A stretch of DNA of 64,000 bases. It comes from Desulfobacterales bacterium (GTDB lineage Bacteria; Desulfobacterota; Desulfobacteria; Desulfobacterales; G963662235). Below, one piece after another: positions 14,370 through 64,000 of this stretch (position 1 is the stretch's first letter; each line of letters begins with the position of its first letter). The DNA lies in contig OY759308.1 of NCBI GenBank assembly GCA_963662235.1, forward strand, positions 1,078,109 to 1,142,108. The letters run 5' to 3'. Position numbers and translations under genes: made by a program. Below the pieces are notes generated by a model that ran no database searches, was not told the DNA's origin, and was given only the letters and a program-made list of their open reading frames with translations.

Positions 14370-15617
14370 TTATAATTTTTCAGCTATCTTTTTTCCTGTT
14401 TCAAAAAGGGCTTTAATACTTTGTTTGTCAGGTACAAATAGAACTTTTTGAGGTTCTGATACTATCTCAAAATTTGCTTCCTTTAACGATTCTTCAATAA
14501 TTTTTATAGACTCTCCGCTCCAACCATAAGAACCAAAAGCTACTCCTTTTTTACCTTTTGGTTTCAAACCTTTCATATAAGTTAAAAAGTCGGCAACTTT
14601 TGGAAGTATACCGTTGTTTAAGGTGGGGCAACCAAGAATTAAAGCTTTTGAATCTAAAAGCTCTGTAATAATATCGCTCCTATGATGCTCACCAAGTTTT
14701 AAAAGTTTAACATTTATTTTCCCTGATGCTGCAATTCCTTTTGCTATCTCTTTTGCCATCTTTTCTGTACTGTGCCACATAGTATCATAAACAACGAGTG
14801 CTTTGTTTAAACTCTCTTGTCTGCTCCATTTTTCATATAGAGACACAATTTTATTTATATCTTTCTCTTTTCTAAATAAAAATCCGTGATCTGGACAAAT
14901 CATTTTTATTTTTAAGTCCATCTCTTTTATCTTTTCTAAAAGTTTTAAAACCTGTTTTGAAAAAAGGAGTAAAATATTGGCAAAATATTTTTTACCTTGT
15001 GTAAATGCAGCGTGTCCCTCTTCATCGGAAAAAAGCTTAAAACTTGCATAGTGTTGTCCAAAAGCATCACTTGAGAAAAGAATTTGATCTTCTTTTATAT
15101 AAGTAAACATACTGTCCGGCCAATGAAGCATTTTAGTTTCTAAAAAGCTTAATGTTTTTCCGCCTATATCAAGAGTATCATTACTTTTTACAACCTTATA
15201 ATTATAATTTCCAAAATGAGCTTTAAGATTTCTCTCTCCAGCAGGGGAGCAGTAGATAGGTTTATCTTTGCCAATAAGGTGCATAATACGTGGTATAGAA
15301 CCAGAATGGTCCATTTCTGTATGGTTGCTTATTAAAATATCAATTTTTTTTGGATCAATTATTTTTGAAATATTATCAATAAACTCTTTTGAAAACCTTG
15401 CTTTTACAGTGTCTATCAAAACCGTTTTTTCTTTCCCGATTATAAGAAAAGCGTTGTAAGTTGAACCGTAATCGGTTGAATAACCGTGAAAATCTCTAAT
15501 GTTCCAATCAATTACTCCCACCTGATAAATATTTTCTGCTATTTGATTATTGTCCATTTCTTCCTCTCTATTTGAGATTTTTGTACATACTGTTTTTTCG
15601 TGAGTTTTTTTTACCAT
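14370..15617 (-). CDS. flavodiiron protein (FprA, A-type flavoprotein)
   Basis: Metallo-beta-lactamase motif SNHTEMDHSG plus a C-terminal flavodoxin-like domain. The true start may be the ATG at 15557 (MDNNQIAENIYQVG). Confidence 0.85.
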   Translation of the reverse strand: MVKKTHEKTVCTKISNREEEMDNNQIAENIYQVGVIDWNIRDFHGYSTDYGSTYNAFLIIGKEKTVLIDTVKARFSKEFIDNISKIIDPKKIDILISNHTEMDHSGSIPRIMHLIGKDKPIYCSPAGERNLKAHFGNYNYKVVKSNDTLDIGGKTLSFLETKMLHWPDSMFTYIKEDQILFSSDAFGQHYASFKLFSDEEGHAAFTQGKKYFANILLLFSKQVLKLLEKIKEMDLKIKMICPDHGFLFRKEKDINKIVSLYEKWSRQESLNKALVVYDTMWHSTEKMAKEIAKGIAASGKINVKLLKLGEHHRSDIITELLDSKALILGCPTLNNGILPKVADFLTYMKGLKPKGKKGVAFGSYGWSGESIKIIEESLKEANFEIVSEPQKVLFVPDKQSIKALFETGKKIAEKL

Positions 15618-15768
15618 TTCCCCCTTTTGTAGAGAACGGTTTTAAACCGTTCCTCGAAATAATTTTAAATTTAGAAAATTTAAAATTATTTCGAGGTAAA
15701 GGGGGTTCGCCGCAAGGCATTTCCCCCTTTTAAGGGGGATTAAGGGGGGTTCGCCGCAAGGCGAAAAA
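15617..15768. repeat. ~150-bp composite G/C-word hairpin module
   Basis: Chain of palindromes (gaacggttttaaaccgttc; cgaaataattttaaattt/aaatttaaaattatttcg; ccccttttaaggggg; ttcgccgcaaggcgaa). Second copy at 59421-59566. Confidence 0.85.
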
Positions 15769-16623: not shown

Positions 16624-17261
16624 CGTAGGGCGGGGAGACCCCGCCCCTACGGTTATGATTGCGTGATAAAAATTAAAAAAATCGCAAAAAATTTAATAGA
16701 AACGATGTAGGGGCGTATTGATATACGCCCATTAAACAATGCAATTATAATCAAAAATAATTATTTGGGCACGGCACGCCGTGCCCACGGTGTTGTGTCC
16801 ATACAATAATGCAAACACCAATATAAAAAATGAAAATGTTGTAAGGGCAAAATACGCTTATCCCCAACGCAAAACAAATCATATTGAAACAGTAAAAAAT
16901 TATATTAAAATGATTGAATATCGTAGGGGCGAGACCAAACCCGCCCAATATTATTTTCAAACCGTGTAGAGACAGGTCGCGACCTGTCTCTACGGTGAAA
17001 AAATGTTTTTATGAAATTTGTTTCGTTACGCAAAAAACATTTACGATTTTTTTTTAGCATTATTTGGTTTATCCCGCCCAATATATTGTGTTGTTTTTTA
17101 TGTAGGGGCGTATAGCCATACGCCCATTAAACAATGCAATCATAATCAAAAACAATTATCTGGGCACGGCGTGCCGTGCCCATCTTGCAATTTCATATTG
17201 GTTTAATTAAATGCCGTAGAAATGCAAAATATTACAGAGACGCAAAATCTTGCGTCTCTAC
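16624..17261. repeat. cluster of 8 REP-like nested hairpins in the cobB-ftsK spacer
   Basis: Hairpins at 16625-16650, 16707-16730, 16767-16786, 16923-16946, 16966-16993, 17102-17125, 17162-17181 and 17234-17261. An ~85-bp unit at 16701-16786 is duplicated at 17096-17181. Confidence 0.85.
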
Positions 17262-17301: not shown

Positions 17302-19443
17302 TTATTGATTAACAAGTACCTCGCGTTGTTTTGCTCCATCAGCTTGACTTATTACACCTTCTTTTTCGAGTGTTTCTATAATTCTTGCCGCTCTGTTGTA
17401 GCCTATTCTGAACTCTCTTTGGACACTTGAAATTGAAGCTTTTCTTGTTCTTACAACATAATCTAATACTTCATCATATTTTTCATCATACTCTATTTCG
17501 GAGTCGTCTTTTGAATCGCTATGTTTTGGTTTGGTTACTTCACTATTATATTCTGGGTCGCCTTGAGATTTTAAAAATTTTATTAAATTTTTTACATCGT
17601 TATCGGAAATATATGCACCATGAATTCTTTTTATTCGCGCTGTGCCTGGAGGCAAGAAAAGCATATCTCCATTTCCTAAAAGTGTTTCTGCCCCATTACC
17701 ATCTATGATTGTTCGTGAATCAATTTTTGATGAAACTTGAAAAGATATTCTTGTAGGAAAATTTGCTTTTATAATACCAGTTAAAACATCAACAGAAGGT
17801 CTTTGAGTTGCAAGAATGATATGCATACCAGCTGCTCTTGCCATTTGAGCCAGTCTCGTTAAAGCGAACTCAACATCTTTTGAAGCTACCATCATAAGGT
17901 CTGCAAATTCATCGACTATTATGACTATATAAGGCAACTTCTTTAACTCTTCTTCGCCCTCTTTTTTTATAATATTTTTACTTTTTTCTATACTTTCATT
18001 ATACTGTTGTATGTTTCTTGCTTGTGAATTTGCAAGAAGTTCATATCTTCTTTCCATCTCTTGTACTGCCCAAATCAGTGCATTTGTTGCTTCTTTAGTG
18101 TCGGTTACTACATTTGTAATAAGATGAGGAATATTATTATAGATTGAGAGTTCTATTCTTTTAGGATCTATCATAATTAGTTTTATTTCATCTGGAGTAG
18201 CTTTATAGAGCAGGGAAGCTATCATAACATTTAAGCCAACACTCTTTCCTGTTCCTGTTGCCCCTGCAATTAAGAGATGAGGCATCTTATCCATTTCTAC
18301 AGCAACGGGTTTCCCTTCTATATCTTTACCAAGACAAATAGTGAGTTTGGATTCTAATTCTTGAAAAGCCAAAGAGCTGACTATTTCTTTAAAAGGCACG
18401 ATCTCTCTTACATCGTTTGGAATTTCAATTCCTATAACATCTCGTCCTGGTATTGGTGCTATAATTCTTATACTCTTTGCAGATAGTCCTAACGCCAAAT
18501 CGTTAGATAAGTTCGAAATCTTACTTATCTTTACTCCTGAAGCGGGTCTATATTCAAAAGTAGTGATGACAGGTCCTGGGATGACACTTATGACTTTCCC
18601 TTGTATTCCGAAATCTTCAAGTTTTTGTTCAAGTTTAAGTGCAAGATTATTTAGTTTATTATTACTTATATTGACATCTTTTTTAAATATGTCGTCTAAC
18701 AGTTCTATATTTGGAAGTTCATAACCCCTGCTTTTTTTGGCTTCTTGCCAATTTTCGCGTACTATTTTTTTAATATTTGTCTCTTCTATATTTTTTTTAG
18801 TGTCGTTATTTTTACTATCATTTTCGCTTTCGTTTTTTGAGCTTTTTACAATATTCAATCTTCTCTTTTTCAGCTTTTTAACTGTTATATCAAAGAGAGT
18901 TAAGTGAACAAAGAGTAAAAGAGAGTATAAAAATTTAAAGATTTTTTTAAATGAGATACCAGTTATAGCAATAAGGCTTATACAAAATAAAAAGATTAAA
19001 ATTAATACAGCACCAAGAAGTTTTGTATATTTTATTAAAAAGAATTTTAAGAAAAAACCTACTATTCCAGTTGCAGGAAACATAGTGCCTGCAATATTGA
19101 TATAGCTTTTATTAAGTCCTAATAAAGTACTCGTTGTTATAATGAGCAAAAGACCGAAAAGAACCGTTCTTACATAAATATTCTCACTCTTCATTTTTAA
19201 AATGTCGTACAAAATAGGTGTAGCAAATAGAAATGGAATCCAAAAAGAACCGATACCCCAAACAGTAAATGTAAAACTTGCAAAATAAGCCCCTGCAAGC
19301 CCTAATAAGTTGTTTATTCTAATATTGGTTAATGTGCCATAAAACACATTTAGGGAAGGGTCATCTGGAGAATAAGATGTAAGACTTATCAGAGTAAAAA
19401 TAATAAAAAAAAATAGTATTATGAATTTGATTTCTTTTCTCAT
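17302..19443 (-). CDS. ftsK: DNA translocase FtsK
   Basis: N-terminal TM segments, Walker A GATGTGKS, C-terminal winged-helix gamma domain (SISSVQREFRIGYNRAARIIE). The track start at 19497 lies inside a MITE hairpin, so the ATG at 19443 is preferred. Confidence 0.9.
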   Translation of the reverse strand: MRKEIKFIILFFFIIFTLISLTSYSPDDPSLNVFYGTLTNIRINNLLGLAGAYFASFTFTVWGIGSFWIPFLFATPILYDILKMKSENIYVRTVLFGLLLIITTSTLLGLNKSYINIAGTMFPATGIVGFFLKFFLIKYTKLLGAVLILIFLFCISLIAITGISFKKIFKFLYSLLLFVHLTLFDITVKKLKKRRLNIVKSSKNESENDSKNNDTKKNIEETNIKKIVRENWQEAKKSRGYELPNIELLDDIFKKDVNISNNKLNNLALKLEQKLEDFGIQGKVISVIPGPVITTFEYRPASGVKISKISNLSNDLALGLSAKSIRIIAPIPGRDVIGIEIPNDVREIVPFKEIVSSLAFQELESKLTICLGKDIEGKPVAVEMDKMPHLLIAGATGTGKSVGLNVMIASLLYKATPDEIKLIMIDPKRIELSIYNNIPHLITNVVTDTKEATNALIWAVQEMERRYELLANSQARNIQQYNESIEKSKNIIKKEGEEELKKLPYIVIIVDEFADLMMVASKDVEFALTRLAQMARAAGMHIILATQRPSVDVLTGIIKANFPTRISFQVSSKIDSRTIIDGNGAETLLGNGDMLFLPPGTARIKRIHGAYISDNDVKNLIKFLKSQGDPEYNSEVTKPKHSDSKDDSEIEYDEKYDEVLDYVVRTRKASISSVQREFRIGYNRAARIIETLEKEGVISQADGAKQREVLVNQ

Positions 19444-22400: not shown

Positions 22401-22930
22401 ATGACAAATAAAATACCTTTAGAACATCCTGGAATTATTTTAAAATAAGAATGAGAGCTTTGCACATAGCTCTATTTTGGAATATTTTTGTGGTGTAGTA
22501 GTATATTAATACGTCAAACCCAAAAATATTGCAAAAGAGAGCGTAACTCTTTATAGGGTTTTTTTTAAGTTTTTGTGAAATTATCAAAAGTTGATATTTT
22601 ATTAAAAACTACTATTTTTTTATAAAAAAACATTATGTGCAAAGTTCTCAAGAATTTATAGAGCAATTGGGGACAACTGTTTATACAGTATCAAAAAGAA
22701 CAGGTATTTCGCAAACAGCTCTTAGTGAAATAATAAAAGGAAAAAGAAATATTTCACCAACAAACGCTTTAAAATTGTCAAAATTCTTTGGTGTTTCAGA
22801 CTGTTTTTTCATCAATATTCAAACTAAGTATAATTTAGATTTGGCAAAAGAAAAAAACAAGCAACCTCTTTCAAAAATAACTCCTTTTGAAATAATGAGT
22901 GCAAACAGAGAAAAAATATTGAAACTTTAG
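22401..22930 (+). pseudogene. higA: higA-type XRE antitoxin gene interrupted by a MITE
   Basis: The 15-codon N-terminal piece MTNKIPLEHPGIILK* (22401-22448) and the HTH body from 22650 are in the same frame once the MITE and one TSD copy (203 bp) are removed. An in-frame TAA remains at 22446. No higB nearby. Confidence 0.7.
22453..22649. mobile_element. MITE copy F (197 bp), TSD AAGAAT
   Basis: Ends gagagctttgcacat / atgtgcaaagttctc. AAGAAT at 22447-22452 and 22650-22655. Confidence 0.85.
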
Positions 22931-23048: not shown

Positions 23049-24287
23049 TTAAACCTTGAAAACCTTTTTAATCTCATTTATTTTAGATTTTGAAATGCCT
23101 ACATTTGTGGCAAGTTTTTGCCAATTGGATAAAGCTTCTTTTGTCTGTTCTATCATAGCTTTAGCGTTCACTTCTTTGATGCCTGCTGTGTGTGCAAGAT
23201 TAAGAAGATGCTTATCTGTGATGTTTTTTCCAACTCCCATCACCATAGTGCTTTGTTCTGTGCCTGGTCCATTTGAATAAGTAATGTCATATGCTGGCGA
23301 AAGTTTCCATTCGCCGAACTCATTCATCAGAAATGAAAAATTTTTACCATGGTCATCTTGGTTGTGGGATAAGACATTAAATAGTGATAGGCGATACATC
23401 TTTTTAACTTCACGCATATCTTTCGTAAGTGTTGCTGTTAGTGCTATTAAGTCTTGATAGTCAAGTGAGGGGACACGAAAATTGATATTTAGTAACCCTG
23501 AGGCACTTACCATATGAAAGCGTTGATTGTTTATGCGGTCAAATCGCTTAATCGCAAAATGTCTGCCATTTTTTTTGGTTTCAAATAGATGTGTTTTTGG
23601 CATATCTAATCCAGCGATTTTTGCCATTTGGCTGTAAACATATTCAATTGCCCCTGCTTCTTTACCGTCACTTGTATTGCTGAATTTTACTATCCAATGT
23701 TCATACTCTTTTTTGAGATTTTTTACACCGTGTATAATTTTGCTCTTGTCTTTATTTACACCAATTAAAGCTTTCGGTCTTGCTCCTGCTGATGAACCAT
23801 TCAAAGCGAGTAATTTTTCAAAAAGGGCATCATACTTACCTTTCAAAATTGCTTCTGCTTCATACGATAAAGTATCAAGATTAACTTCTTCACTTTTCTT
23901 ATCTGTTTCACTGCGGTTAGGATGATATATCAATGCTCCCATACCATTTTCCCCTACATAAGCAAGACTATCCAAAACAGAAAAATTTTTTTGGTTTATG
24001 CCCTTAGCACGCAAAGCACGATCAAGTAACAATCGTCCCCAGCCATCTGGCAAGCTGTCTGAAAACACACCTGCAATTTTATTAGGGAGCATAGGGTCAA
24101 AAGATTGAAGTCCGTTTTTAAGGGGTAGTTTAATCGGTGAAATCTCAAGTCCTTTGCTTAAAAAATCAGAATCATATTCGAAGTAAACTTTACCATCACT
24201 TAGTGCCAATCGCCCAACCGAAAATGGTTTTTTATCGAAAAGAATAGAAACATTTACTAATGAAACTGGTTTATAAGTTTGTGTCAT
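23049..24287 (-). CDS. hipA: HipA-family serine/threonine kinase toxin
   Basis: 412 aa. HipA N-terminal coupling region and catalytic loop QDDHGKNFSF. Overlaps the upstream HTH gene by 4 nt. Confidence 0.85.
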   Translation of the reverse strand: MTQTYKPVSLVNVSILFDKKPFSVGRLALSDGKVYFEYDSDFLSKGLEISPIKLPLKNGLQSFDPMLPNKIAGVFSDSLPDGWGRLLLDRALRAKGINQKNFSVLDSLAYVGENGMGALIYHPNRSETDKKSEEVNLDTLSYEAEAILKGKYDALFEKLLALNGSSAGARPKALIGVNKDKSKIIHGVKNLKKEYEHWIVKFSNTSDGKEAGAIEYVYSQMAKIAGLDMPKTHLFETKKNGRHFAIKRFDRINNQRFHMVSASGLLNINFRVPSLDYQDLIALTATLTKDMREVKKMYRLSLFNVLSHNQDDHGKNFSFLMNEFGEWKLSPAYDITYSNGPGTEQSTMVMGVGKNITDKHLLNLAHTAGIKEVNAKAMIEQTKEALSNWQKLATNVGISKSKINEIKKVFKV

Positions 24288-31148: not shown

Positions 31149-31180
31149 TAGGTGAAAAAATATTTACTTAATTAGGTCTG

Positions 31181-31400
31181 TTTTTCGCCTTCGGCGAACC
31201 CCCTTAATCCCCCTTAAAAGGGGGAGAAGAGATAAAAAAAATCCCCATTGAAAGGGGGAGAAGAGATAAAACAATCCACTTGAAAAGGATAGAAAATATA
31301 AAAAAAACCTTGAAAGTAGGAGAAGAAAATATCAACTATTTCAAGACTTGATAGGCAAGAATATTTCCCCCCTTAAAAAGGGGGGATAGGGGGGTTAAAA
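31181..31400. repeat. G/C-word hairpins plus a decaying ~33-bp tandem array (31209-31340)
   Basis: ttcgccttcggcgaa and cccccttaaaaggggg, then four successive units cccccttaaaagggggagaagagataaaa... that lose G/C progressively. ccccccttaaaaagggggg at the right edge. Confidence 0.8.
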
Positions 31401-45712: not shown

Positions 45713-46064
45713 AAGACAGAGCATTGTCATAAGCCGAATTCTGTATTTATAAGCAATCATTCATCTAAGGATAAAAGTTGCCTTTTATCTCTTGCGACCT
45801 ACCCGAAAATAAGACGAGCAGCCTTATAACTTTCCTATTTGGTCTTGCACCAGGTGGGGTTTACAAAGCATTGGTAGTCACCTACCAATCTGGTGCGCTC
45901 TTACCGCACCTTTTCACCCTTACCATAAAATGGCGGTATACTTTCTGTTGCACTTTCCTTCATATCGCTACGACTCTACGTTATAGAGCACCTTGCTCTT
46001 TGGTGTTCGGACTTTCCTCTATCACCTTAAAAGGTAACAGCGATTGCTCGCAATACTCTGTCAA
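45713..46064 (-). ncRNA. rnpB: RNase P RNA, bacterial type A
   Basis: The minus strand reads GAGGAAAGTCCGAACACC (46019-46002), GTGCAACAGAAAGTATACCGCC, GGTAAGGGTGAAAAGGTGCGGTAAGAGCGCACC, GTAAACCCCACCTGGTGCAAGACCAAATAGG and ACAGAATTCGGCTTATGAC. P1 pairs gacagagtattg with caatgctctgtc. The ends are approximate to a few nt. Confidence 0.9.
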
Positions 46065-46127: not shown

Positions 46128-46323
46128 GAGACCTTTGCACATAGCTCTATTTTGTAATATTTTTGTGGTGCAGTAGTATATTAATACGTCAAACCCAAAA
46201 ATATTGCAAAAGAGAGCGTAAGTCTTTATAGGGATTTTAGAGGTTTTTGAAAAAATTATTAAAAGTTAATATTTTTTTCAAAACCACTATTTTTCTATAA
46301 AAAACATTATGTGCAAAGGTCTC
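46128..46323. mobile_element. MITE copy H (196 bp), TSD AGTGAG
   Basis: AGTGAG at 46122-46127 and 46324-46329. Full inverted ends. Confidence 0.85.
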
Positions 46324-46337
46324 AGTGAGATATTTGT

Positions 46338-46373: not shown

Positions 46374-49300
46374 TTATTTTGATATATTGAAAAATCTTTC
46401 AAAGAATTTGGTGAATTTTTCAATTATAGTTTCTCTTTTTTTGGTTCTTTCGCCAGTTTTAGAAAATCTTGATATTGGGGGTAAAACTTTAGTTAATGCT
46501 GTTCCTGTTGTTGTAATATTTCCGTCTCTGAATGAATTTTTTATAAATTTGTATGTTTCTTCATAGTTAAGATTTTCTTCTTTTATTATTTTGTCTAACT
46601 CTTCAATTTTCTTTTTCTCTACAAATTTTTGCCAATCTTTATCTACAACAGATTGAACATTTAGTGATTCAATAAATTGCAAGATAAGGTCTTTTTTATT
46701 ACGAAGTTCTACACTTGAATCTATTGCTTTGTTTATATCTAATAGAATCTCTTTATCTTTTGTGTTGTCTTTATGATATTTTTTAATTAGCTTTAAAATA
46801 TAATCGATATTGATTTCAATTTGTTTGATAAGCTCCATCTCAAAGATAAGATCATCATTAATATTTTCTTTTTCTACATTTTTATCTTTTCTAAACTCAT
46901 TATATAAATCTATGTATAAACTATGATAATCTTGAACATCTCTTTGAGTTAAAATTTCGTTACCTTCAAATTCGTCAAAAGTAGTAAGAATATTTCTAAC
47001 TCTTAAAATTCCGCCATAAAGTTTAATGAACTCTTTTTGATTTTGCTCTCCAACTATTCTTTCTTCAAGAGGAAATTTTTCTTGTAGCTCTTCAATTAGA
47101 CTTTTATATCCTCGCACTTTTTTGCCGTCTTGTTCATATCCATTATAATATTCTTGATATGTTTTTAATAAAACTATGCCACTTGCTTCTTTATCTCCAA
47201 AAAGAGAGATGGCTTCTTTGGTGGCTTTTTCTAAGTTTCTAAAACAAATAATATTTCCAGAGTTTTTTATGGTGTTTAAAATACGATTGGTACGAGAAAA
47301 TGCTTGAAGCAAGCCATGCAATCTTAAATTTTTATCTACCCAAAGAGTGTTTAGCGTAGTTGCATCAAAGCCTGTTAAGAACATATTGACTACTATTAAA
47401 ATATCTATGTCCCTATCTTTTACTCTTTTGCTAACATCTTTATAGTAATTTTGAAATTTATCTGAAGTTGTGTTGTAAGATGTCCCAAACATTTTATTAT
47501 AATCTTTAATAGCGTTTTCTAAAAATTCTCTTGAGCTTGCATCAAGTCCGCTTGTATTTTCAGAATTTTCATCTGCTACCCCGTCATTTTCTTCTTCATT
47601 TACTCCAAAGCTATAGATTGTTGCTATTTTGAGTTTTTTATCGCTTGGTAACTCCTTTATCTGTTTTTTAAATTCAGTATAATATTTTTTAGCCATTTCA
47701 ATAGAAGACACTGCAAAAATAGAGTTAAAACCTGCAAGTCGTCTATCTTTTAACTTATAAAAACTGTTTCTTTTTGTTTTATCATCAAACTTTTCAAGGA
47801 TATATTTTACAATATTGCTTAATCTTTCAGGAGCTAAAAGTGCTGCTTCTCTATCAATAGATTTAACTTTTTTATCTTCAATCTCTTCTGCCTCTTTAAT
47901 TGTAGAAATAAAATCCACTTTGAAAGGTAAAACATTTTTGTCATTAATAGCATCTACAATAGTGTAAGTGTGCAATTTGTCGCCAAAAGCTTGCTCTGTG
48001 GTTTTCAAATCAAATCTACCGCCAGAAGATGAGTTTATTGCAAAAATAGGAGTGCCAGTAAAACCGAAAAGATGATATTTGTTGAATGCTTTTGTGATTG
48101 CTTTGTGCATATCTCCAAATTGAGAGCGGTGGCATTCATCAAAAATTAAGACAATATGTCCATTAAAAATTGTGTGCCCTCTATTTTTTTTAATGAATTT
48201 ATCTAATTTTTGAATTGTTGTAATAATTATTCTTGAGTTTGCATCTCCAAGTTGTTTTTTTAAAACGGCTGTGCTTGTGTTGCTGTTGGCGGCACCTTTT
48301 TCAAATTTCTCATACTCTTTCATTGTTTGATAATCTAAATCTTTTCTATCAACAACGAATAAGACTTTATCAATGTAGGGTAATTTGCTTGTAAGTTGTG
48401 CAGTTTTAAAACTTGTTAATGTCTTTCCTGAACCTGTTGTATGCCAAACATAACCTCCTGCTTTTATTGTCCCAAACTGTTTATAATTTGAGCTTATTTC
48501 AATTTTGTTTAAAATCTTTTCAGTTGCAACAATTTGATAAGGTCGCATGGCCAAAAGCTCCTTATCTGTTGTGAATATGCAGTATTTAGTGAGAATGTTT
48601 AGAATTGTATGTTTTGCAAAAAATGTTTTTGTAAAATCGACTAAATCGGTTATTGGTTTGTTTTTAGCATCTGCCCACCAGCTGGTAAATTCATAACTGT
48701 TGCTTGTTTTTTTTTCTTTTCTTTTTGCTCTTTTATTTGTTTTTGCAAGATGCTCAAATCTTGTAGTGTTGCTGTAATATTTTGTGTGGGTTCCGTTAGA
48801 AATTACAAAAAGTTGAACATATTCATATAATCCACTTGATGCCCAAAAACTTTCTCTTTGATAACGATTGATTTGATTAAATGCTTCTTGAATTGCCACT
48901 CCTCTTCTTTTAAGCTCAATATGGACTAAAGGTAAACCGTTTACTAAAACAGTTACATCATAACGATTTTTATACTTTCCTTCGTCTGTTTCATATTGGT
49001 TAATCACTTGAAGTACATTGCGGTGAACATTATCTTTTCTTAGCAGGTAGATATTTTTACTTACTCCATCATCACATTGTAGAATTTTAATGTAATCTTC
49101 TTGTATAGTGGTTGTTTTGTCTTCTATGCTTTGATTTGGATTTGCTAACTCTTTTTTAAAAAAATAGTCCCATTCGTTATCAGAAAATTCAAAATCGTTT
49201 AATTTTTCTAATTGTTGCCTTAAATTTTTTACTAAATCTTTTTCACTTGTAATATTTAGATGTTCATAAGCTTGTGATTTTAATTGTTCAATAAATGCTT

Positions 49301-49421
49301 TTTCTAATTCTGCTTCGCTCTGATAGTTTTGCGGTTTTTTGCCATAAGGCGAGATATATTCGCAAACAAATGTGTTTTGGGTATCTTGCACCACCATATT
49401 GTAATTAACATTTTTTGGCAT
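46374..49421 (-). CDS. hsdR: type I restriction endonuclease R subunit
   Basis: 1015 aa. HSDR_N region, helicase motif I TGSGKT, motif II FDECHRSQ, motif VI QAFSRTNR. Confidence 0.9.
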   Translation of the reverse strand: MPKNVNYNMVVQDTQNTFVCEYISPYGKKPQNYQSEAELEKAFIEQLKSQAYEHLNITSEKDLVKNLRQQLEKLNDFEFSDNEWDYFFKKELANPNQSIEDKTTTIQEDYIKILQCDDGVSKNIYLLRKDNVHRNVLQVINQYETDEGKYKNRYDVTVLVNGLPLVHIELKRRGVAIQEAFNQINRYQRESFWASSGLYEYVQLFVISNGTHTKYYSNTTRFEHLAKTNKRAKRKEKKTSNSYEFTSWWADAKNKPITDLVDFTKTFFAKHTILNILTKYCIFTTDKELLAMRPYQIVATEKILNKIEISSNYKQFGTIKAGGYVWHTTGSGKTLTSFKTAQLTSKLPYIDKVLFVVDRKDLDYQTMKEYEKFEKGAANSNTSTAVLKKQLGDANSRIIITTIQKLDKFIKKNRGHTIFNGHIVLIFDECHRSQFGDMHKAITKAFNKYHLFGFTGTPIFAINSSSGGRFDLKTTEQAFGDKLHTYTIVDAINDKNVLPFKVDFISTIKEAEEIEDKKVKSIDREAALLAPERLSNIVKYILEKFDDKTKRNSFYKLKDRRLAGFNSIFAVSSIEMAKKYYTEFKKQIKELPSDKKLKIATIYSFGVNEEENDGVADENSENTSGLDASSREFLENAIKDYNKMFGTSYNTTSDKFQNYYKDVSKRVKDRDIDILIVVNMFLTGFDATTLNTLWVDKNLRLHGLLQAFSRTNRILNTIKNSGNIICFRNLEKATKEAISLFGDKEASGIVLLKTYQEYYNGYEQDGKKVRGYKSLIEELQEKFPLEERIVGEQNQKEFIKLYGGILRVRNILTTFDEFEGNEILTQRDVQDYHSLYIDLYNEFRKDKNVEKENINDDLIFEMELIKQIEINIDYILKLIKKYHKDNTKDKEILLDINKAIDSSVELRNKKDLILQFIESLNVQSVVDKDWQKFVEKKKIEELDKIIKEENLNYEETYKFIKNSFRDGNITTTGTALTKVLPPISRFSKTGERTKKRETIIEKFTKFFERFFNISK

Positions 49422-50045: not shown

Positions 50046-50822
50046 ATGTTTAAAAACAATAAAACCACAAAAAGATGGCTTGATGATACATATGAAAAAT
50101 ATAATCATCGCACCTTTGTTCATCCAGACCCGCTGGAGTTTTTGTATCGATATGAAGAGCCTTTTGACATAGAGATTATAGGTTTTATTGCATCTGTTTT
50201 AGCGTATGGAAGAGTTAAGCAAATTCTTTTAAGTGTAGATAAAGTTTTAAATTTATTGGGAGATAGCCCAAGACTTTTTTTATTAAGTGTAGATGAAGAT
50301 TTTTTAAACAAAAAGTTAAAAACTTTTAAACATAGATTTACCAAAGGCGAAGAGATAGTAAATTTACTTATTGGACTTAAAAAAATTATTATAAAATATG
50401 GCTCAATAGAAAACGCATTTACTCAAGGCTTTGATAGAAAAAGAGATAAAACAATCATTCCTGCATTAACAAAATTTTGTAATCTATTTTATGAGATAAC
50501 AAACAACAATTTCCCTTTTTTACTTCCTTCGCCAGATAAAAAGAGTGCCTGTAAAAGAGTTAACTTGTTTTTAAGATGGATGATAAGAGCGGATAGTGTT
50601 GATTTAGGGATATGGGATAATTCTCTTGCTCCTTATTTAATAGTTCCACTCGATACCCATATGTTTAAGATAGGCAAGTCTTTAAATTTTACAAAAAGAA
50701 AAACTGCCGATTTAAAAAGTGCTATAGAGATAACTCTAAAATTTAAAGAGATAAGCCCAAAAGACCCTGTTAAATACGATTTTGCAATTACAAGAGGGGG
50801 AATTCAAAAAAATTACTTTTAA
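50046..50822 (+). CDS. TIGR02757/DUF2400-family protein
   Basis: HPDPLEFLYRY...D.EIIGFIASVLAYGRVKQIL pattern as I recall it for this family; 258 aa. From memory only. Confidence 0.5.
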   Translation: MFKNNKTTKRWLDDTYEKYNHRTFVHPDPLEFLYRYEEPFDIEIIGFIASVLAYGRVKQILLSVDKVLNLLGDSPRLFLLSVDEDFLNKKLKTFKHRFTKGEEIVNLLIGLKKIIIKYGSIENAFTQGFDRKRDKTIIPALTKFCNLFYEITNNNFPFLLPSPDKKSACKRVNLFLRWMIRADSVDLGIWDNSLAPYLIVPLDTHMFKIGKSLNFTKRKTADLKSAIEITLKFKEISPKDPVKYDFAITRGGIQKNYF

Positions 50823-58581: not shown

Positions 58582-59235
58582 TTATTTGTATGCGTGCCCA
58601 AGCAGGAGCTTAATCAAAAACAAAACTAAGCTCCAGAGCAGAATAATAAACAAATAAAAAATTGATAAAAAGAGGAATGAGGCAATTAGTAAAATGCTTA
58701 CAAAACTCGCGAGAAATTTAGTTTTATTATTTGTGATAAAATTTTCTACATCTTGTTTCGTTAAATTGAAATCTGTGAATTGCTTATTTTTTTGTGTTAA
58801 ATCTTGAAAATTAAAAATTTGGATTTTGTTGGAATCTTTAATAATTAGATTGTTTTTATTGACTACAAAACCGACCTCTTTATTTTCTAAAGCATCAGTA
58901 TCAATATTTTCATTGGTATCTATATGAATAAACACATTTTTTTCGTCATAAATATAAGGTGGTAAATTGTTGATACTTAATTCTGAGTTAGTTAGAGTGA
59001 TAGAAACATCATCTGCCACTGTTTCATCAAATTTATTATAAAGTTCTGCAGACAGGTTAATAATCTTGAAAGTAGAAAATCCAGTAAATATTATCGCGAA
59101 AAATCCATTCGCCAAAAACCAAAATCCCCACGAATGAAGTTTTTTGGTATTTTTTTCAACTAAAAATTTCGTCAAAAAACAAGGTTTGAAAATGTCGATT
59201 CCGCGTTTCCAAAATTTCAAGTTTTTAGTTTTCAT
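58582..59235 (-). CDS. hypothetical membrane protein
   Basis: 217 aa. One TM near the N-terminus and two near the C-terminus, with an Asn/Asp-rich middle. No family assigned with confidence. Confidence 0.5.
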   Translation of the reverse strand: MKTKNLKFWKRGIDIFKPCFLTKFLVEKNTKKLHSWGFWFLANGFFAIIFTGFSTFKIINLSAELYNKFDETVADDVSITLTNSELSINNLPPYIYDEKNVFIHIDTNENIDTDALENKEVGFVVNKNNLIIKDSNKIQIFNFQDLTQKNKQFTDFNLTKQDVENFITNNKTKFLASFVSILLIASFLFLSIFYLFIILLWSLVLFLIKLLLGHAYK

Positions 59236-59342
59236 AATTTATAAAAATTAAATTGCTTAGCTTAATTGTCTTTTCTTGTGAATTTTTGTCAAAAAAATTT
59301 TGCAATCCAGTAATAAACGGCTGGATTAAAGTTTGTAATAAG

Positions 59343-59410
59343 AAAATCTCGCGAGATTTTTTAACCCCCCTTAATCCCCCCTTAGAAGGGGGGAATATTT
59401 CGCGAGATTT
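59343..59410. repeat. TCGCGA-armed palindromic module
   Basis: Perfect 18-bp palindrome aaaatctcgcgagatttt (59343-59360), then ccccccttagaagggggg, then atttcgcgagattttt. A second copy of the module is at 59728-59790. Confidence 0.85.
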
Positions 59411-59420
59411 TTTTCTTACG

Positions 59421-59566
59421 ATTTCCCCTTGTGTAGGGAACGGTTTTAAACCGTTCCTTACTTAATTTTAAAAAATTTAAAATTATTTCGGGGTAAAGGG
59501 GATTCGCAGTCAGGCATTTCCCCCTTTTAAGGGGGACTAAGGGGGTTCGCCGTTAGGCGAAAAAAA
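59421..59566. repeat. second copy of the ~150-bp composite G/C-word hairpin module
   Basis: Aligns with 15617-15768 at roughly 85-90% with small indels. Confidence 0.85.
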
Positions 59567-59586
59567 TAGATACACAAAAGGTGTCG

Positions 59587-59614
59587 TTGACAAAAACCCG
59601 ATAATATATATAAT
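59587..59614 (+). promoter_or_regulatory. near-consensus sigma70-type promoter (TTGACA-N16-TATAAT)
   Basis: TTGACA at 59587-59592 and TATAAT at 59609-59614, facing the 59691/59841 ORF. Confidence 0.55.
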
Positions 59615-59840
59615 GCCACTTGATATTATCTCATAATTTTTAGTTATTGAGATGTTTACCTAAAACCCCCTAAAATTAAGAAACAATCAAATGAATTTTA
59701 CAATAGAATCAAAATCAAATTTCAAAGAATCTCGCGAGATTTCGCGACCCCCCCTAACCCCCCTTGGAAGGGGGGAAAAACCTCGCGAGAATTTAAACCC
59801 AAATCCAACCAAACAAGAATTAGCAGATTTAGGAAAAGAA

Positions 59841-61052
59841 ATGGAAAAATCGCGAGAAATTCCGCCAAAAATGACTCGTCGAGAACTTTTAAAATTGGCT
59901 GGTGGTGCTGCTATTGGGACAAGTGTTTTAGGTAAAGTTTTAAACGCTCTTGGTCCAAAATCAGCTGAAGCATCAGAAAGCAATGAAGATGAAAAAATTG
60001 ACTGGAAATATATGCTGAAAAAAAAGAACCGCCACTTTGAAAAAACCAACAAATATGCCCTCCAACCTTTCGACGAAAATGCTTACAATGAAGCACTTAA
60101 TAAAGAAAAAGATCCTTTGGTGGTTGAGAGTATGAAAAATTTCGCGAGAAATGCTCACGAGTTAGAAAACCTTCGCACGCAATGTATGGACGAAAAAAAC
60201 CGTTTAGAGTGGTTTAAAAAAGAGGCGGAAAAATTCGCGAAAAAACTGCGTGCTTACGACATCAAAGGCGAGTGTGCCAAAATCGCAGAGCTTCAAAAAA
60301 CTAATCCGCACCAATATGCCGTAAAACTTGGCGAGCTGACTGACGAGCTCTCTTTTCAGTTGCAAACTGCCAACGCTTTCATTCAAAAATCTTATGCCAT
60401 CGCGAGCGGTAAAGAGGTTAACCCTTCTAAGCCAGCCAGCGGTTCTACTTTTAAAGAAGTGGAAAATTTCAGCTATAAATATGTTTCAGATGTTAATGCC
60501 TCATACGCTGGTTTTTTCCGAACTATCGAACGAGTCAAAAATCCTCCGCCAGACGCAAACAAAGACCGCTCAATCTTGATCCAAGGTGCGGATGGAAAAT
60601 ATCTGCAATTTTTCGCGAAATTTGACACTCAACCGGCAATTCAAGAGTTGGTGAAAGAAAAGGGCGTTGTTTATGAAATGTCGCGTGTGATGAGAGATTT
60701 TTTTAATGAGGTGCCGTGGAAAAGTCCGGATTTACAAGAATTGACAGACAGCGCTACTGGTATCAATAATTTAACTCGCAGATTAAATCTCTATTTATCT
60801 ACTTATGCCGTTTATAATCCTTATAAATTATTTCGCGAAGATTTTGATTGGTATCGCTCTTTGCAAGAAGGGGTAAGTCAAGAGTATGTTGATTTGAGCA
60901 GATTGCAGAATAAAATGCAAAGAATGAGAAAAGCTGATGTTTTTTATAGAGGATTGTTAAAACCGCCTCCTTTTCCAGAAAAAACAAAAAAACTATATAG
61001 AGACTACGGAGCTTCTTACAATAAGTTTATTGATAATAAATATAAATATTAA
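59841..61052 (+). CDS. uncharacterised exported protein with twin-arginine (Tat) signal
   Basis: MEKSREIPPKMTRRELLKLAGGAAIGTSVLGKVLNALGPKSAEA: TRRxLLK motif, h-region and AEA cleavage site. AGGA lies 8 nt upstream of the ATG at 59841. The 59691-59840 part of the track ORF is repeat-derived. Mature part not recognised. Confidence 0.65.
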   Translation: MEKSREIPPKMTRRELLKLAGGAAIGTSVLGKVLNALGPKSAEASESNEDEKIDWKYMLKKKNRHFEKTNKYALQPFDENAYNEALNKEKDPLVVESMKNFARNAHELENLRTQCMDEKNRLEWFKKEAEKFAKKLRAYDIKGECAKIAELQKTNPHQYAVKLGELTDELSFQLQTANAFIQKSYAIASGKEVNPSKPASGSTFKEVENFSYKYVSDVNASYAGFFRTIERVKNPPPDANKDRSILIQGADGKYLQFFAKFDTQPAIQELVKEKGVVYEMSRVMRDFFNEVPWKSPDLQELTDSATGINNLTRRLNLYLSTYAVYNPYKLFREDFDWYRSLQEGVSQEYVDLSRLQNKMQRMRKADVFYRGLLKPPPFPEKTKKLYRDYGASYNKFIDNKYKY

Positions 61053-61127
61053 GAATAATAAGTTCTTATATTTCCAAATAAAAAATTTCGCGAGATTTTA
61101 GAATCTCTATTCATTTTAACTGGTTGG

Positions 61128-61194
61128 TTCCGCGACAAGCACGGAATGACTAATGAAAAACATACCTTTCGTCATTCTGGATTTATCCAGAATC
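61128..61194. repeat. inverted doublet of GTCATTC-headed hairpins
   Basis: ttccgcgacaagcacggaatgac (inverted) and gtcattctggatttatccagaatc, 20 bp apart. Confidence 0.6.
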
Positions 61195-61290
61195 TATAAA
61201 AAATTTAGAAAACAAATCTTTATGTCTTTATGCAAAAAATATTTCTGATTTTTCTCGCAATTTAAAAGAATAATTAAATCTCAAAAAAAT

Positions 61291-61319
61291 TCGCGAAAAA
61301 TTTTCTGATGTGTTAAAAT
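61291..61319 (+). promoter_or_regulatory. putative extended -10 promoter (TGTTAAAAT) with TCGCGA in the -35 slot
   Basis: TGnTAAAAT at 61311-61319. TCGCGA at 61291-61296 lies 17 bp upstream. The ATG at 61344 follows. Confidence 0.35.
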
Positions 61320-61343
61320 GCTTGGAATTTTTAATTTTTCTAA

Positions 61344-64000
61344 ATGCAAAAAACACGATTGGTTCTTTTTATTTTAATTTCCTTTTTGTTTAATATCTCA
61401 AATTTCTCTTTATTAATTTCAAACGAAAATCTCGCGAAAAATTTAGTTTACGCCGAAAGTGCAGGAACAGAAGAAAAAGATGAAGAAGGTGATTCCACAG
61501 ATGCCACAATACAAACATTCAACGCCAAAGACTATCTAAAATCTTACCTGACAGAAGTCCGCGACGCTTACAAAAAATATAAAGAACTTTACCAAAAATA
61601 TTATACCGAAATTGGCGTAGAGCCTTCTGAAAATAGTAATAATGCGGCATACTTTTACGAACAGCGTAAGTCAAGAATGGAAGACGCACAAAATCTTGTC
61701 GTAAAAGCAATCGGTAATGAGGCGAAAATAACAAATGAGAATATTAATGAAAAAATTGAAATTAATGAAACTTTACCAAAGCAACTTTTTACAAGATTAC
61801 AAGACGGTGTAGAAATTTTGATTGAAAGACTTGATGCAGAGCGAGACGAATACGAAAAAGAACGCGAAAAATTAAAAGAACAAGTTGAAGAAATTCGCGA
61901 GATTTATGGCGAGAAATTGAAGATTGATTCAGAAACTGTTAGAATAAAGTTTTGTACAAAAATTATAGACAAGAACGATGGGTTAAAGTGTATGAGAATG
62001 GTAAATGATGAAACAGAAAAAGCTCTTAACTATAATGCTTCTTTTGTGATTAATGAGAAGAATATTTTTGATGAATTTGAAGATAATGTTTTTGTTGATT
62101 TGCTTAAAAATAGTACAAGCAGAAGTGATGTATTACGAGAAAAGAAAGATATGGATAAGTTATGGGAAAAGACAAAAACAAAGTATATTGAAAAGATTAC
62201 AACAGCAGTTGAAGGGAGTCAAGGTGGTGGTGAAGATAAATTGAATGATGAGATTTTAAAATTAAGAATTGCGATTAAGGTGTATGAAACAGGAACATAT
62301 GATCTACAAAAAAAAGGAACATATGAATTAGCACAAGAAAAATTAAACACAGCAAAAGAAAAAGTGAATAACCTTAAAGATGAACGAAAAAATTTGACGG
62401 GAAATTTGACGAAAACAAAAGAAGCGATTGCCAAACTTCAAAATGAGATTAAAGCTTTGAAAAAAGCAGATACTAAAAATGAAGATGAAAAAAAGAAAAA
62501 TAAAGAAGCCATTAAAAGTAAAGAAGAGTTGCTTGAAAAATTAGAAGAGGCGGCGGAACAAGAAGAAAAAGCTTTGGAAGAAAAATTAGAAGAGGCTTAT
62601 AAAAACTTAGAGGACGCGCAAGAAGATTTTGACAAAGCTGAAAAAAATCTCGCGAAATTAAAAATCAAATTAGCAGAAAAATTAAAAGAAAAAGATAGTT
62701 TAAAAAATGGAGTTTTAGACGATTTAATCGATATTTTTAATGATCAGTGTACAGATGACAAATGCACAGATTTCGCGGAAATAATTGAGGCACTGGAATA
62801 TAATAAACAAACTCTGGAAGAAATTATTAATGATATAGCGAGTAAATATGAAGAACATATTAATCAGCATTATAAGTTGTATGATGACTATGAGAAAAAA
62901 TATAATAACTTAATAACTCAAATTAAGAAGATTGTAGCTGGAAAGAATAAAATGATGCCTTTAGATCCTGCTAAATATACGCAAATTTTAGATGATTTAA
63001 ATTTTCAGTCAGAATGGTTTGTTCCTAAAGGTGCAAGTCCTTTATTAAGTGATTTAAAGGGGAAAATTAGATCGTTAGTTTTAGATACAGATAAAACAGA
63101 AACAGATGTAGAGGACATTTTCAAGGAGATTGATACAGCGGTTGAAGAAAATACAGAGTATGGAAAGTTGAAGAGTTGTGTGGAAGAGAATGAAGATTTC
63201 GGGTTTATATTGGATGATTTTAAGTACAATATAAAAAATTATGCAATTTCGTATTATGAAAACGAATGTTATTTGGATATAAATAATAAGAACTTCAAAG
63301 TTCAAAATAATTGTGATGAGTATGCGGAGGAATTACAATTTAATAAAGAAGTATATAATGATGAGTTTGAAATTTCTCGCGAGGAAATTAAAAAATGTTT
63401 TTCTAATAAATTAAGTGCGTTTGTAAAGGCAAAAACAAAATTAACCACACAATCGGGTACAATAGAGATGGCAGAAAAGGAATTAAAAGATGCAGAAAAT
63501 ATTGATGCTATTACTTCAGCACTTGCCAAAAAATCTAAAGCAGAAGAAAAAATAAAAACATTAGAAAACGAAATGAAAGAAATAAACGATCAAATAGATA
63601 AAAAAATGAGCGATTTTGTGCTTTATGATACGGAGTTTGTGCCGAAACGAGCGTATTTACTCGCTGAGTTAAAAAAAGATAAAAAAGAGTATAAAGAAAA
63701 TAAGGACAAGTTATTAGGACAAATTGCTTATATTGAGGAAGCCAACAAGTTGATGAAGAGCTTGGACAATTTTCCAAAAGAGTATAAGGTTTTTGTGGGA
63801 CAAGGGGCGTTGCCTGGTTCTGTCCAAAATAATGAAAACGCTGGATTAGGTGATGTGCAAGATTCATTGCTTTTCTTTGGCTCGTTCATCTTTAAATGGT
63901 CAATGATTGGCGGAATGTTTGGGTTTTTGCTTTTAGGAATTGTCTTTATTTTGCACCCTTATGATCCAGAACTTCTTACATCTGTTAAAAATTGGGGTTT
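61344..64000 (+). CDS. large secreted/membrane-anchored coiled-coil protein, 3' end beyond window (>885 aa)
   Basis: My hand translation from the ATG at 61344 found no stop to the window end. Signal peptide MQKTRLVLFILISFLFNISNFSLLIS...VYA/ES, a long K/E-rich heptad-like region, paired Cys (DQCTDDKCTD), and a TM segment FIFKWSMIGGMFGFLLLGIVFIL near 63890-63955. Not in the ORF track because it has no stop. Confidence 0.8.
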   Translation, partial: MQKTRLVLFILISFLFNISNFSLLISNENLAKNLVYAESAGTEEKDEEGDSTDATIQTFNAKDYLKSYLTEVRDAYKKYKELYQKYYTEIGVEPSENSNNAAYFYEQRKSRMEDAQNLVVKAIGNEAKITNENINEKIEINETLPKQLFTRLQDGVEILIERLDAERDEYEKEREKLKEQVEEIREIYGEKLKIDSETVRIKFCTKIIDKNDGLKCMRMVNDETEKALNYNASFVINEKNIFDEFEDNVFVDLLKNSTSRSDVLREKKDMDKLWEKTKTKYIEKITTAVEGSQGGGEDKLNDEILKLRIAIKVYETGTYDLQKKGTYELAQEKLNTAKEKVNNLKDERKNLTGNLTKTKEAIAKLQNEIKALKKADTKNEDEKKKNKEAIKSKEELLEKLEEAAEQEEKALEEKLEEAYKNLEDAQEDFDKAEKNLAKLKIKLAEKLKEKDSLKNGVLDDLIDIFNDQCTDDKCTDFAEIIEALEYNKQTLEEIINDIASKYEEHINQHYKLYDDYEKKYNNLITQIKKIVAGKNKMMPLDPAKYTQILDDLNFQSEWFVPKGASPLLSDLKGKIRSLVLDTDKTETDVEDIFKEIDTAVEENTEYGKLKSCVEENEDFGFILDDFKYNIKNYAISYYENECYLDINNKNFKVQNNCDEYAEELQFNKEVYNDEFEISREEIKKCFSNKLSAFVKAKTKLTTQSGTIEMAEKELKDAENIDAITSALAKKSKAEEKIKTLENEMKEINDQIDKKMSDFVLYDTEFVPKRAYLLAELKKDKKEYKENKDKLLGQIAYIEEANKLMKSLDNFPKEYKVFVGQGALPGSVQNNENAGLGDVQDSLLFFGSFIFKWSMIGGMFGFLLLGIVFILHPYDPELLTSVKNWG

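Follow-up and report, generated by a model that had tools for sequence, protein, structure and literature searches.

A 5.4-kb island close to the end of a 64-kb chromosomal stretch of a Desulfobacterales bacterium (contig OY759308.1, positions 1,078,109 to 1,142,108; the whole stretch of 64,000 nucleotides is hereafter referred to as the window) carries a dense iteration of the palindrome TCGCGA, which runs through and between a gene of the DUF1189 family and two orphan open reading frames (ORFs), ORF1 and ORF2. We consider it probable, rather than assured, that the segment from position 58582 to at least 64000 was acquired horizontally and has retained an iterated palindrome of its donor, akin to the highly iterated palindrome HIP1, as opposed to an array that evolved in place. 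We read the segment as an island because the motif is confined to it, its codons are CpG-rich and foreign, the block has moved in a related genome, denoted L002, and the same motif is found in metagenome-assembled genomes (MAGs) of some ultra-small bacteria, the Patescibacteria. The host sequence examined consisted of the window, that of the related genome of 21 kb and that of the Patescibacteria MAGs of 8-kb pieces.

TCGCGA occurs 20 times in the window, compared with 3.46 ± 1.60 copies expected from dinucleotide shuffles (maximum, 7), and none of the 100 shuffles reached the observed count. Nineteen of these copies fall within positions 58707–63382, a 5-kb cluster in which 0.36 copies are expected, corresponding to a 53-fold enrichment, whereas the sole copy outside of the cluster, at 16977, lies midway in a hairpin of another kind, GTAG...CTAC. 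An earlier note on this DNA had listed 17 copies, all of them at exact positions, and had named 16977 as the only further one; two more, at 58707 and 59094 in the minus-strand DUF1189 gene, had been overlooked. Its guess that chance would produce one copy per 10–20 kb agrees with the shuffles, which give approximately one per 18 kb. CGCG tetramers follow the same distribution, with 26 of the 37 in the window falling within the 5.4 kb of the island. The consensus of the sites, AAAATY-TCGCGA-RATTTT, is a 16–18 bp palindrome with A/T arms, and the non-random flanks that the note had described are evident from the frequency of A, which is 68%–84% at positions −6 to −3 and is followed by T, Y, the core, R, A, W, W and T. 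A more general form, YYCGCGRR with A/T arms (hereafter, armed YYCGCGRR), reaches 2.95 per kb in the island, with no copy in the remaining 58.6 kb of the window. The repeat families centred on the motif are 18–23 nt long, the sole longer unit being a pair of 51-bp mini-element insertions.

The constraint acts on the DNA, not on a peptide repeat, because the sites occur in each of the three codon phases and on either coding strand, and outnumber those in synonymous-codon shuffles that preserve the protein and the codon usage of each gene. In such shuffles of ORF1, 0.69 copies were found on average compared with the five observed, a number reached in none of 2000 trials; when the annotated start of ORF1 was used, nine copies were observed versus 1.12, again with 0/2000 trials reaching the count. 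The corresponding values are four versus 0.58 for ORF2 (1/2000 reaching four) and two versus 0.17 for the DUF1189 gene (15/2000 reaching two). In the two annotated forward ORFs, the T of the site occupies codon position 2 six times, position 3 three times and position 1 once, and sites are found on both coding strands, two of them in the minus-strand DUF1189 gene. Coding sequence harbours 11 of the 19 sites and non-coding DNA the other 8; with duplications removed, non-coding DNA has 5.4 per kb versus 4.2 per kb in ORF1, in which four of the six GCG codons lie inside sites. Thus, the claims of the note that the density far exceeds chance, that all three phases are used, that the sites take up most GCG codons of ORF1 (4/6) and that the DNA rather than a peptide is constrained all withstood scrutiny, including both kinds of shuffle.

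Codon and dinucleotide usage mark the three genes of the island (DUF1189, ORF1 and ORF2) as compositional outliers. Their CpG observed-to-expected ratios are 1.12–1.25 (0.86–1.11 with the sites masked) versus a host median of approximately 0.7. CGN codons make up 60% of the Arg codons in the island, 17% in the host and 81% in Peribacteria, GCG accounts for 27%, 6% and 28% of the Ala codons, and CCG for 23%, 4% and 22% of the Pro codons, respectively; Fisher tests of the Arg, Ala and Pro shifts yielded p = 9e-9, 5e-5 (sites masked) and 6e-4. In the DUF1189 gene, the proportions of Arg CGN and Ala GCG are 100% and 38%, and the CpG ratio is 1.12. Relative synonymous codon usage (RSCU) of the island correlates with that of the host at 0.76, whereas the host genes of the window and of L002 correlate at 0.99, and the dinucleotide distance delta* between the island and the host is 94, two to three times the 26–43 obtained for 5.4-kb chunks of host DNA. 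The atypical codon usage extends along the full length of ORF2, which places the far border of the island no earlier than position 64000.

L002 is a 1.6-Mb contig from a different assembly, which encodes P0001, a protein 90% identical to that of ORF1. There, the ORF1–ORF2 block resides between MurJ and unrelated genes, directly behind an insertion sequence (IS) element, and not beside RmuC–DUF1189, and ORF2 ends after 199 codons. The IS element, an rve transposase with a helix-turn-helix (HTH) gene, lies immediately upstream of the block, its insertion being approximately 50 bp upstream of the equivalent of the ORF1 promoter (59587–59614); no such element is present in the window. All 10 TCGCGA copies of L002 (1.56 expected) are in the block, at the same positions as in the window, with none in the 18.9 kb outside of the cassette; armed YYCGCGRR reaches 3.70 per kb in the cassette and is absent from 17.1 kb of host DNA. 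Given the RSCU correlation of 0.99 between the host genes and the fact that both hosts have a family of miniature inverted-repeat transposable elements (MITEs) and hairpins resembling repetitive extragenic palindromes (REP-like hairpins) in common, the two hosts are related and the block is mobile within their lineage. An assembly chimera is likewise excluded by the second location of the block in a related host. Between the two genomes, the first flanking bases of the sites vary only within Y and R, and in the 89%-identical part of the alignment five out of five sites are conserved, compared with 59.6% of hexamers (P = 0.075). ORF1 is a mosaic (window 59836–59923 and 59924–61052 versus L002 10086–11305): the segment of the Tat signal peptide cannot be aligned with L002, the next 750 bp are 99.2% identical (pS, 0.026) and the last 375 bp show a pS of 0.278, a pattern that points to recent recombination among members of the family. 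No close genome was found for an empty-site comparison, the best RmuC relatives in the JGI metagenomes being just 43%–47% identical.

Scanning one genome per species for AAATYTCGCGARATTT produced matches that, among those listed, are mostly single and scattered over unrelated taxa, with the exception of at least four Patescibacteria MAGs, which stand out and were thus found through the motif itself: two of Peribacteria (loci L049 1–8000, L052 1–8000, L076, L022, L044, L018 and L081), one of Gracilibacteria (L077) and one of Saccharibacteria (L015). In the two Peribacteria MAGs, the motif is present on two and five separate contigs. The observed and expected numbers of TCGCGA are 43 and 1.2 in the Saccharibacteria locus, 30 and 1.5 or 28 and 2.0 in Peribacteria, and 11 and 1.0 in Gracilibacteria; TCGCGA, enriched 11- to 35-fold, is by far the most over-represented hexamer palindrome in these loci. 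The general form derived from all CGCG tetramers of the MAGs is an A/T arm, YYCGCGRR and a second A/T arm (e.g., AAAATCCCGCGAAAATTT and AAATTTCGCGAAATTT). It occurs at 3.5–4.25 per kb in Peribacteria, 4.07 in Gracilibacteria and 1.88 in Saccharibacteria, compared with at most 0.25 per kb (median, 0) in 107 other genome loci, and the sites are spaced one every 250–550 bp. The YYCGCGRR context accounts for 66%–70% of CGCG in the Peribacteria loci and 41%–46% in those of Gracilibacteria and Saccharibacteria. Annotated Peribacteria and Saccharibacteria loci with the motif encode LeuRS, SecA, SufB, PGK, MetRS, an M24 peptidase and a Mur ligase; being present in housekeeping genes, the motif is not confined to islands in these MAGs. 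After removal of the sites that match the query, the base frequencies in the arms correlate between the MAGs and the island at r = 0.87–0.91, compared with 0.55 for a flat background, and the island and the MAGs also agree in codon phases and in the tripeptides encoded across the sites (FAK, LAK, FAS; IRE, FRE, SRE; SRx). In the literature searched, no paper ties TCGCGA or a CGCG palindrome to these lineages; armed YYCGCGRR in these MAGs looks like an undescribed iterated motif of the HIP1 kind or of the kind of the uptake signal sequence (USS). Among the meanings that the earlier note had considered, a signature of foreign origin has gained support from the atypical composition, the different location in the relative and the iteration of the motif in housekeeping genes of Patescibacteria.

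The leftmost gene of the island (58582–59235, minus strand) belongs to the DUF1189 family (Pfam PF06691, E = 7.7e-17), has no NCBIfam or PHROG match, and finds only itself, with no close homologue, among 5.8e9 proteins. ORF1 (59691–61052, plus strand; the real start is possibly at 59841) encodes an orphan protein with a signal of the twin-arginine translocation (Tat) type (TRRELLKLAGGAAIGTSVLG...AEA). Only two relatives of this protein were recovered from 5.8 billion proteins and by an exhaustive HMMER pass over 1.84 billion representatives, namely, P0001 and P0002, the latter 71% identical and encoded on the same 2,133,799-bp contig as ORF1 and, therefore, a paralogue. ORF1 has no Pfam, NCBIfam or PHROG match, a contig search found no relatives of it in genome contigs, and its AlphaFold model is unusable (mean predicted local distance difference test score, 40.6). 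ORF2 (61344–64000, plus strand, extending approximately 90 nt beyond the window end) encodes an orphan of 915 aa whose features are a signal peptide, a long stretch of coiled coil and, at the C-terminus, two transmembrane helices; in the databases it matches nothing but its own full-length entry, P0004, and apart from weak coiled-coil similarity to SMC there is no NCBIfam or PHROG match. None of the three genes has homologues outside the two host genomes. Comparison with the L002 copies yields pN/pS of 0.13–0.36 for ORF1 and 0.45 for the shared part of ORF2, indicating that these are real genes. None of the genes in the island encodes a DNA-binding protein.

From left to right, the sites begin with two in the DUF1189 gene, at 58707–58712 (acaaaacTCGCGAgaaattt) and 59094–59099. 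The stretches 58702–58724 in this gene and 61427–61449 in the ORF2 signal peptide, on opposite strands, are identical at 21 of 23 nt (AAAAYTCGCGARAAATTTAGTTT), a likeness that exceeds the general motif. The perfect 18-bp palindrome AAAATCTCGCGAGATTTT at 59343–59360, which includes the site at 59349 and is as the note had described it, forms the left copy of a duplication around the first mini-element (repeat family D4); the right copy is the site at 59400–59405, where homology to L002, which reads TAGCGAGATTT (TAGCGA), begins. A host block of REP-like G+C hairpins follows upstream of ORF1 (59410–59570; e.g., GTAGGGAACGG..CCGTTCCTTAC at 59433–59461); it is 97% identical to L002 8289–8437 and has copies at 15599–15768 and 31177–31225 of the window. 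ORF1 is preceded by a perfect consensus sigma-70 promoter, TTGACA-16-TATAAT (59587–59614, plus strand; 12/12 positions), which is conserved in L002. The sites at 59732–59737 and 59783–59788, the latter kept in L002 at 10042, are the left and right copies of the duplication around the second mini-element, which contributes a TCGCGA of its own at 59742, and the site at 59850–59855 lies in the signal-peptide segment that differs from L002. Within ORF1, further sites encode F-A-R (tTC GCG Aga, 60142–60147), F-A-K (60235–60240), I-A-S (60400–60405), F-A-K (60613–60618) and F-R-E (ttT CGC GAa, 60833–60838), and another lies 36 nt past the stop codon (61088–61093). The site at 61291–61296 falls where a possible extended −10 promoter of ORF2 would have its −35 element; the proposal of the note that it fills this slot stands as far as spacing is concerned, the site being 18 nt upstream of TGtTAAAAT, but not for the sequence itself, since TTCGCG fits TTGACA at only three of six positions. 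Sites within ORF2 encode L-A-K (61432–61437), I-R-E (61895–61900; homology to L002 stops 5 nt beyond), L-A-K (62650–62655) and S-R-E (63377–63382). The one-off variants of the note (60681 TCGCGT, 61862 ACGCGA and 62773 TCGCGG) are as described. Two of them, with full A/T arms, look like decayed sites: ACGCGA at 61862–61867, of which the same variant is found in L002, and TTCGCGGA at 62773–62778, for which a YYCGCGRR variant common in Peribacteria is the alternative. As for helical phasing, the spacings (51, 332, 10, 41, 67, 292, 93, 165, 213, 220, 255, 203, 141 and so forth) showed no multiple of 10.5 on inspection. The sequence AAATCTCGCGAGATTT, at 59343–59360 and similar sites, is identical to the optimal site of the BEN domain of vertebrate BANP (PMC10206803, PMC11472053); we judged the likeness to this eukaryotic motif (TCTCGCGAGA, AAATCTCG) a coincidence, given that RNase P of type A, MreB and flagellar genes mark the window as bacterial.

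Whatever their original role, the sites act as insertion and rearrangement hot spots, because two mini-elements are inserted exactly at TCGCGAGA and the ends of the block shared with L002 lie at sites. Both mini-elements (59357–59399, starting with TTTTTTAACCCCCC and ending with CCCCCCTTAGAAGGGGGGAATATT, and 59740–59782; plus strand, the former in a 67-nt repeat of family D4, to which the latter also belongs) are 43-nt G+C hairpins of the host bracketed by TCGCGAGA on either side; a related copy without TCGCGA is present at 31367. Three of the 19 sites go back to these two insertions, through target duplication and one TCGCGA inside an element. The second mini-element and its duplicated TCGCGAGA constitute a 51-bp in-frame insertion (59740–59790) that is missing from L002, where it appears as a 51-bp alignment gap; if translated rather than part of a 5′ untranslated region, it would add 17 codons, ISRPPLTPLGRGEKPRE, to ORF1 (annotated codons 17–33), and in P0002, the paralogue, a longer counterpart is present in frame, ISRTPLTPLGRGERKDNPLRRGEKPRE. 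The block common to the window and L002 starts at the site at 59400 and stops 5 nt beyond that at 61895. Past the latter junction, L002 runs into a REP-like element, other copies of which are preceded by TCGCAAAAAATC or similar sequences, which suggests microhomology-mediated joining.

REP-like G+C hairpins framed by GTAG...CTAC (core GGCACGGCGTGCCGTGCC) are found on both strands of the window, many of them intergenic (16768, 17163, 23015, 34238, 34535, 49466 and 49637), with further ones at 16965–16994, centred on the lone TCGCGA at 16977, and at 59433–59461. The MITEs, approximately 195 bp long, have terminal inverted repeats of 15–17 bp (GAGACCTTTGCACAT...ATGTGCAAAGGTCTC) and 6-bp target duplications (e.g., AATTAC, GTAAGT and CTCACT), and the family has no Rfam match; copies are located at 1896–2103, 8159–8360, 22434–22650 and 46128–46324 in the window, and at 2471–2667, 4805–4990, 17502–17690 and 19172–19380 in L002. 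As a whole, the window derives from the chromosome of a flagellated bacterium of 30% G+C and encodes, among others, a flagellar rod protein, FlhB, FliR, Rho, RF1, MetH, FtsK, AlaRS, MreB, MreC, TruA and RmuC, as well as a type A RNase P RNA; no tRNA was found in it. A gene for the type I restriction subunit HsdR (46374–49421) lies between the RNase P RNA (45714–46059) and DUF2400 (50046–50822), with no adjacent ORF of at least 120 aa as HsdM or HsdS. A gene of the HipA toxin family (23049–24287), in which 85% of Arg codons are CGN versus approximately 17% in the host, is probably another foreign gene; it contains no TCGCGA sites. A replication origin was considered since the GC skew flips sign and genes diverge near 60 kb, but the block in L002 is flanked by convergent genes, and reading the sequence revealed no cluster of DnaA boxes. 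A phage origin was likewise rejected: 16-mers match viral contigs singly, by chance, and none carries iterated copies, there are no PHROG matches and no viral relatives of ORF1; nor were homologues of the island genes found in viral contigs. The window showed neither an integrase nor a tRNA target nor direct repeats flanking the island, the right border of which lies past the window end.

We propose that the DUF1189 gene, ORF1 and ORF2 would have been imported horizontally and that the palindromes came along with the donor DNA. The sites might have accumulated in a donor resembling the motif-rich Patescibacteria; if HIP1 and uptake sequences are a guide, they would owe their numbers to selection or to a molecular drive connected with methylation, DNA uptake or recombination. 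In the bacterium that now carries them, the sites would be passive and could persist because the transfer was fairly recent and most of them lie within constrained codons.

Several observations weigh against horizontal acquisition from such a donor. No donor was identified, ORF1, ORF2 and the DUF1189 gene being without homologues in Patescibacteria or other lineages, and the 71%-identical paralogue P0002 in the same genome implies either long residence or several acquisitions. The absence of the motif from host DNA applies to the 64-kb window, with a further 2.07 Mb of the genome lying beyond it. The G+C content of the island (0.28–0.38) is close to that of the host, and the delta* between the island and Peribacteria (65–86) is only slightly below that to the host (94), with one unrelated locus nearer still. 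The variants also differ, CTCGCGAG, TTCGCGAG and TTCGCGAA in the island versus mostly CCCGCGAA, TTCGCGGG and TTCGCGGA in Peribacteria, and lineages beyond the at least four MAGs listed may carry the motif too. To our knowledge, Tat export is uncommon in Patescibacteria, while ORF1 has a Tat signal. Finally, none of the five sites was lost where the alignment with L002 has diverged, which could hint at constraint in the present lineage.

A working role in the present host has been weighed in several forms. The sites might constitute an array for a dimeric DNA-binding protein encoded elsewhere, such as a repressor, a silencer or a ParB/KorB-like spreader, that nucleates on the palindromes and controls both exported-protein genes. 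A 16–18 bp palindrome with conserved arms would suit a dimer, one site falls on the −35 position of ORF2, four are found just downstream of the perfect consensus promoter at 59587–59614, and the positions are kept between the two genomes, with the first flanks remaining Y/R and five out of five sites conserved in diverged sequence (P = 0.075). Nevertheless, we regard such an array as unlikely, and the operator or ParB/Noc-type array to which the earlier note had likened the sites has not found support: 11 of the 19 sites are coding, the densities of 5.4 and 4.2 per kb show no promoter focus, the array moves with the cassette, neither the 40 window ORFs scanned nor the surroundings of the L002 cassette include a ParB, Noc or HTH regulator, and no parS within three mismatches exceeds chance in the window. 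Furthermore, the CpG-rich codons outside of the sites and the motif in housekeeping genes of Patescibacteria MAGs would be left unexplained. If the sites were recombination or insertion signals, that is, crossover points for shuffling ORF1 paralogues in surface-protein variation or targets of mini-elements, this would account for the two 43-nt elements exactly at the duplicated octamer TCGCGAGA, the start and end of the L002-shared block at 59400 and 5 nt past 61895, the ORF1 mosaic (pS rising from 0.026 centrally to 0.278 over the 3′ third) with its replaced signal-peptide segment and the paralogue in the same genome; a Chi-like role has been proposed for HIP1 (10.1101/2024.09.10.611283). Yet these are only three or four events, the internal mosaic boundaries (~59836, 59923, 60675–60700) miss the exact sites, no recombinase gene is present in or beside the island within the window, a perfect palindrome provides no orientation for site-specific recombination, and the L002 junction is explicable by microhomology with TCGCAAAAAATC beside the REP-like element, all of which makes this explanation quite doubtful.

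A field of methylation targets appears more improbable still. TCGCGA, the recognition sequence of NruI, could be modified by a host methyltransferase or restriction-modification system of this specificity and thereby subject the two genes to epigenetic control. HIP1 has been linked to cognate orphan methyltransferases (PMC4390886), and the host outside of the island has one TCGCGA versus ~3.2 expected, a weak and non-significant depletion. However, the window encodes no methyltransferase, its sole restriction-modification gene being the solitary type I HsdR, and the conserved arms reach well past a 6-bp target. As for chance, codon bias or a repeated peptide, the recurrence of F-A-K/R and x-R-E tripeptides is all that speaks for them, against 0/100 dinucleotide and 0–15/2000 synonymous shuffles reaching the counts, sites in three phases and on both coding strands, and eight non-coding sites; the two kinds of shuffle refute this explanation, to which we attach next to no probability.

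Among known systems, the closest parallel to an imported island with an iterated palindrome comes from the cyanobacterial HIP1 (GCGATCGC), a G+C palindrome that is 15- to 300-fold over-represented, lies in and between ORFs in any frame and with extended flanks, and has no gene-level role found (PMC5861425, PMC4390886); it is reported to boost natural transformation in a methylation-dependent manner (10.1101/2024.09.10.611283). The motif described here resembles HIP1, with its at least 15-fold over-representation, in being heavily enriched (53-fold for TCGCGA in the island and 11- to 35-fold in loci of Patescibacteria, for which candidate phyla radiation, or CPR, is another name), in the location of the island sites inside ORFs in all frames as well as between ORFs and, in both Peribacteria MAGs, in its presence on several contigs. 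It differs in the CGCG core with long A/T arms, in having no known cognate methyltransferase for the armed palindrome and in its confinement, in this host, to a 5.4-kb island, with one unrelated copy in 58.5 kb and none in 18.9 kb of L002, whereas HIP1 is genome-wide; moreover, three of the at least four CPR MAGs are denser (3.5–4.25 per kb) than HIP1, with its approximately one copy per gene. The USS of Haemophilus and the DNA uptake sequence (DUS) of Neisseria are also genome-wide, occur at approximately one per kb inside genes in all frames, mark DNA as ‘self’ and can trace interspecies transfers, the USS having a G+C core flanked by A/T tracts. Unlike the island motif, however, they are non-palindromic and read in one orientation, whereas the island motif is local in this genome.

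The remaining likenesses concern parts of the island. Arrays of ParB, Noc and KorB (parS, TGTTNCACGTGAAACA; the Noc-binding site NBS, ATTTCCCGGGAAAT) similarly consist of 14–16 bp palindromes with T/A-rich arms and a CG-containing core, copies of which spread over a few kb, some in genes, but their sequence differs, the half-site here is one base shorter, no parS or ParB-family gene is present in the window and the sites travel with the cassette instead of holding a fixed chromosomal position. In Rickettsia, the palindromic elements known as RPEs are small hairpins that enter coding regions in frame, comparable to the 51-bp insertion at 59740–59790 (17 codons of the annotated ORF1); the mini-elements are much shorter (43 nt) than RPEs, and the likeness covers only these two, not the TCGCGA array. 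The atypical codon and dinucleotide usage, the orphan genes, the other location in a relative and the IS element at the L002 border are features of genomic islands. Unlike typical ones, the segment in the window has no integrase, tRNA target or flanking direct repeats, its G+C content equals that of the host, and its most diagnostic signal is a single iterated oligomer rather than bulk composition. The segment joins the features of a genomic island with those of an iterated palindrome of the HIP type.

A bolder possibility, which we advance tentatively and consider rather less than probable, is that the island is DNA of a Gracilibacteria- or Peregrinibacteria-like CPR epibiont, or of an element shuttling between epibiont and host, that became fixed in a free-living flagellated bacterium, and that YYCGCGRR is a previously undescribed genome-wide CPR signal, denser than HIP1 or uptake sequences. 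If true, YYCGCGRR may serve in DNA uptake, recombination or methylation in CPR lineages, and the DNA itself would carry a label by which genes passing between CPR bacteria and their hosts could be followed. More generally, a single iterated oligomer can mark imported DNA at host-like G+C, a setting in which standard detectors of islands perform poorly. The side result in Patescibacteria, an 8-bp motif with a CGCG core and A/T arms that is present even in aminoacyl-tRNA synthetase and SecA genes, may matter more than the island itself. Should it be confirmed genome-wide, it would represent the second major hyper-iterated palindrome after the cyanobacterial HIP1, carried by organisms presumed to rely on DNA uptake, and would provide a simple marker for gene exchange of CPR bacteria with other bacteria.

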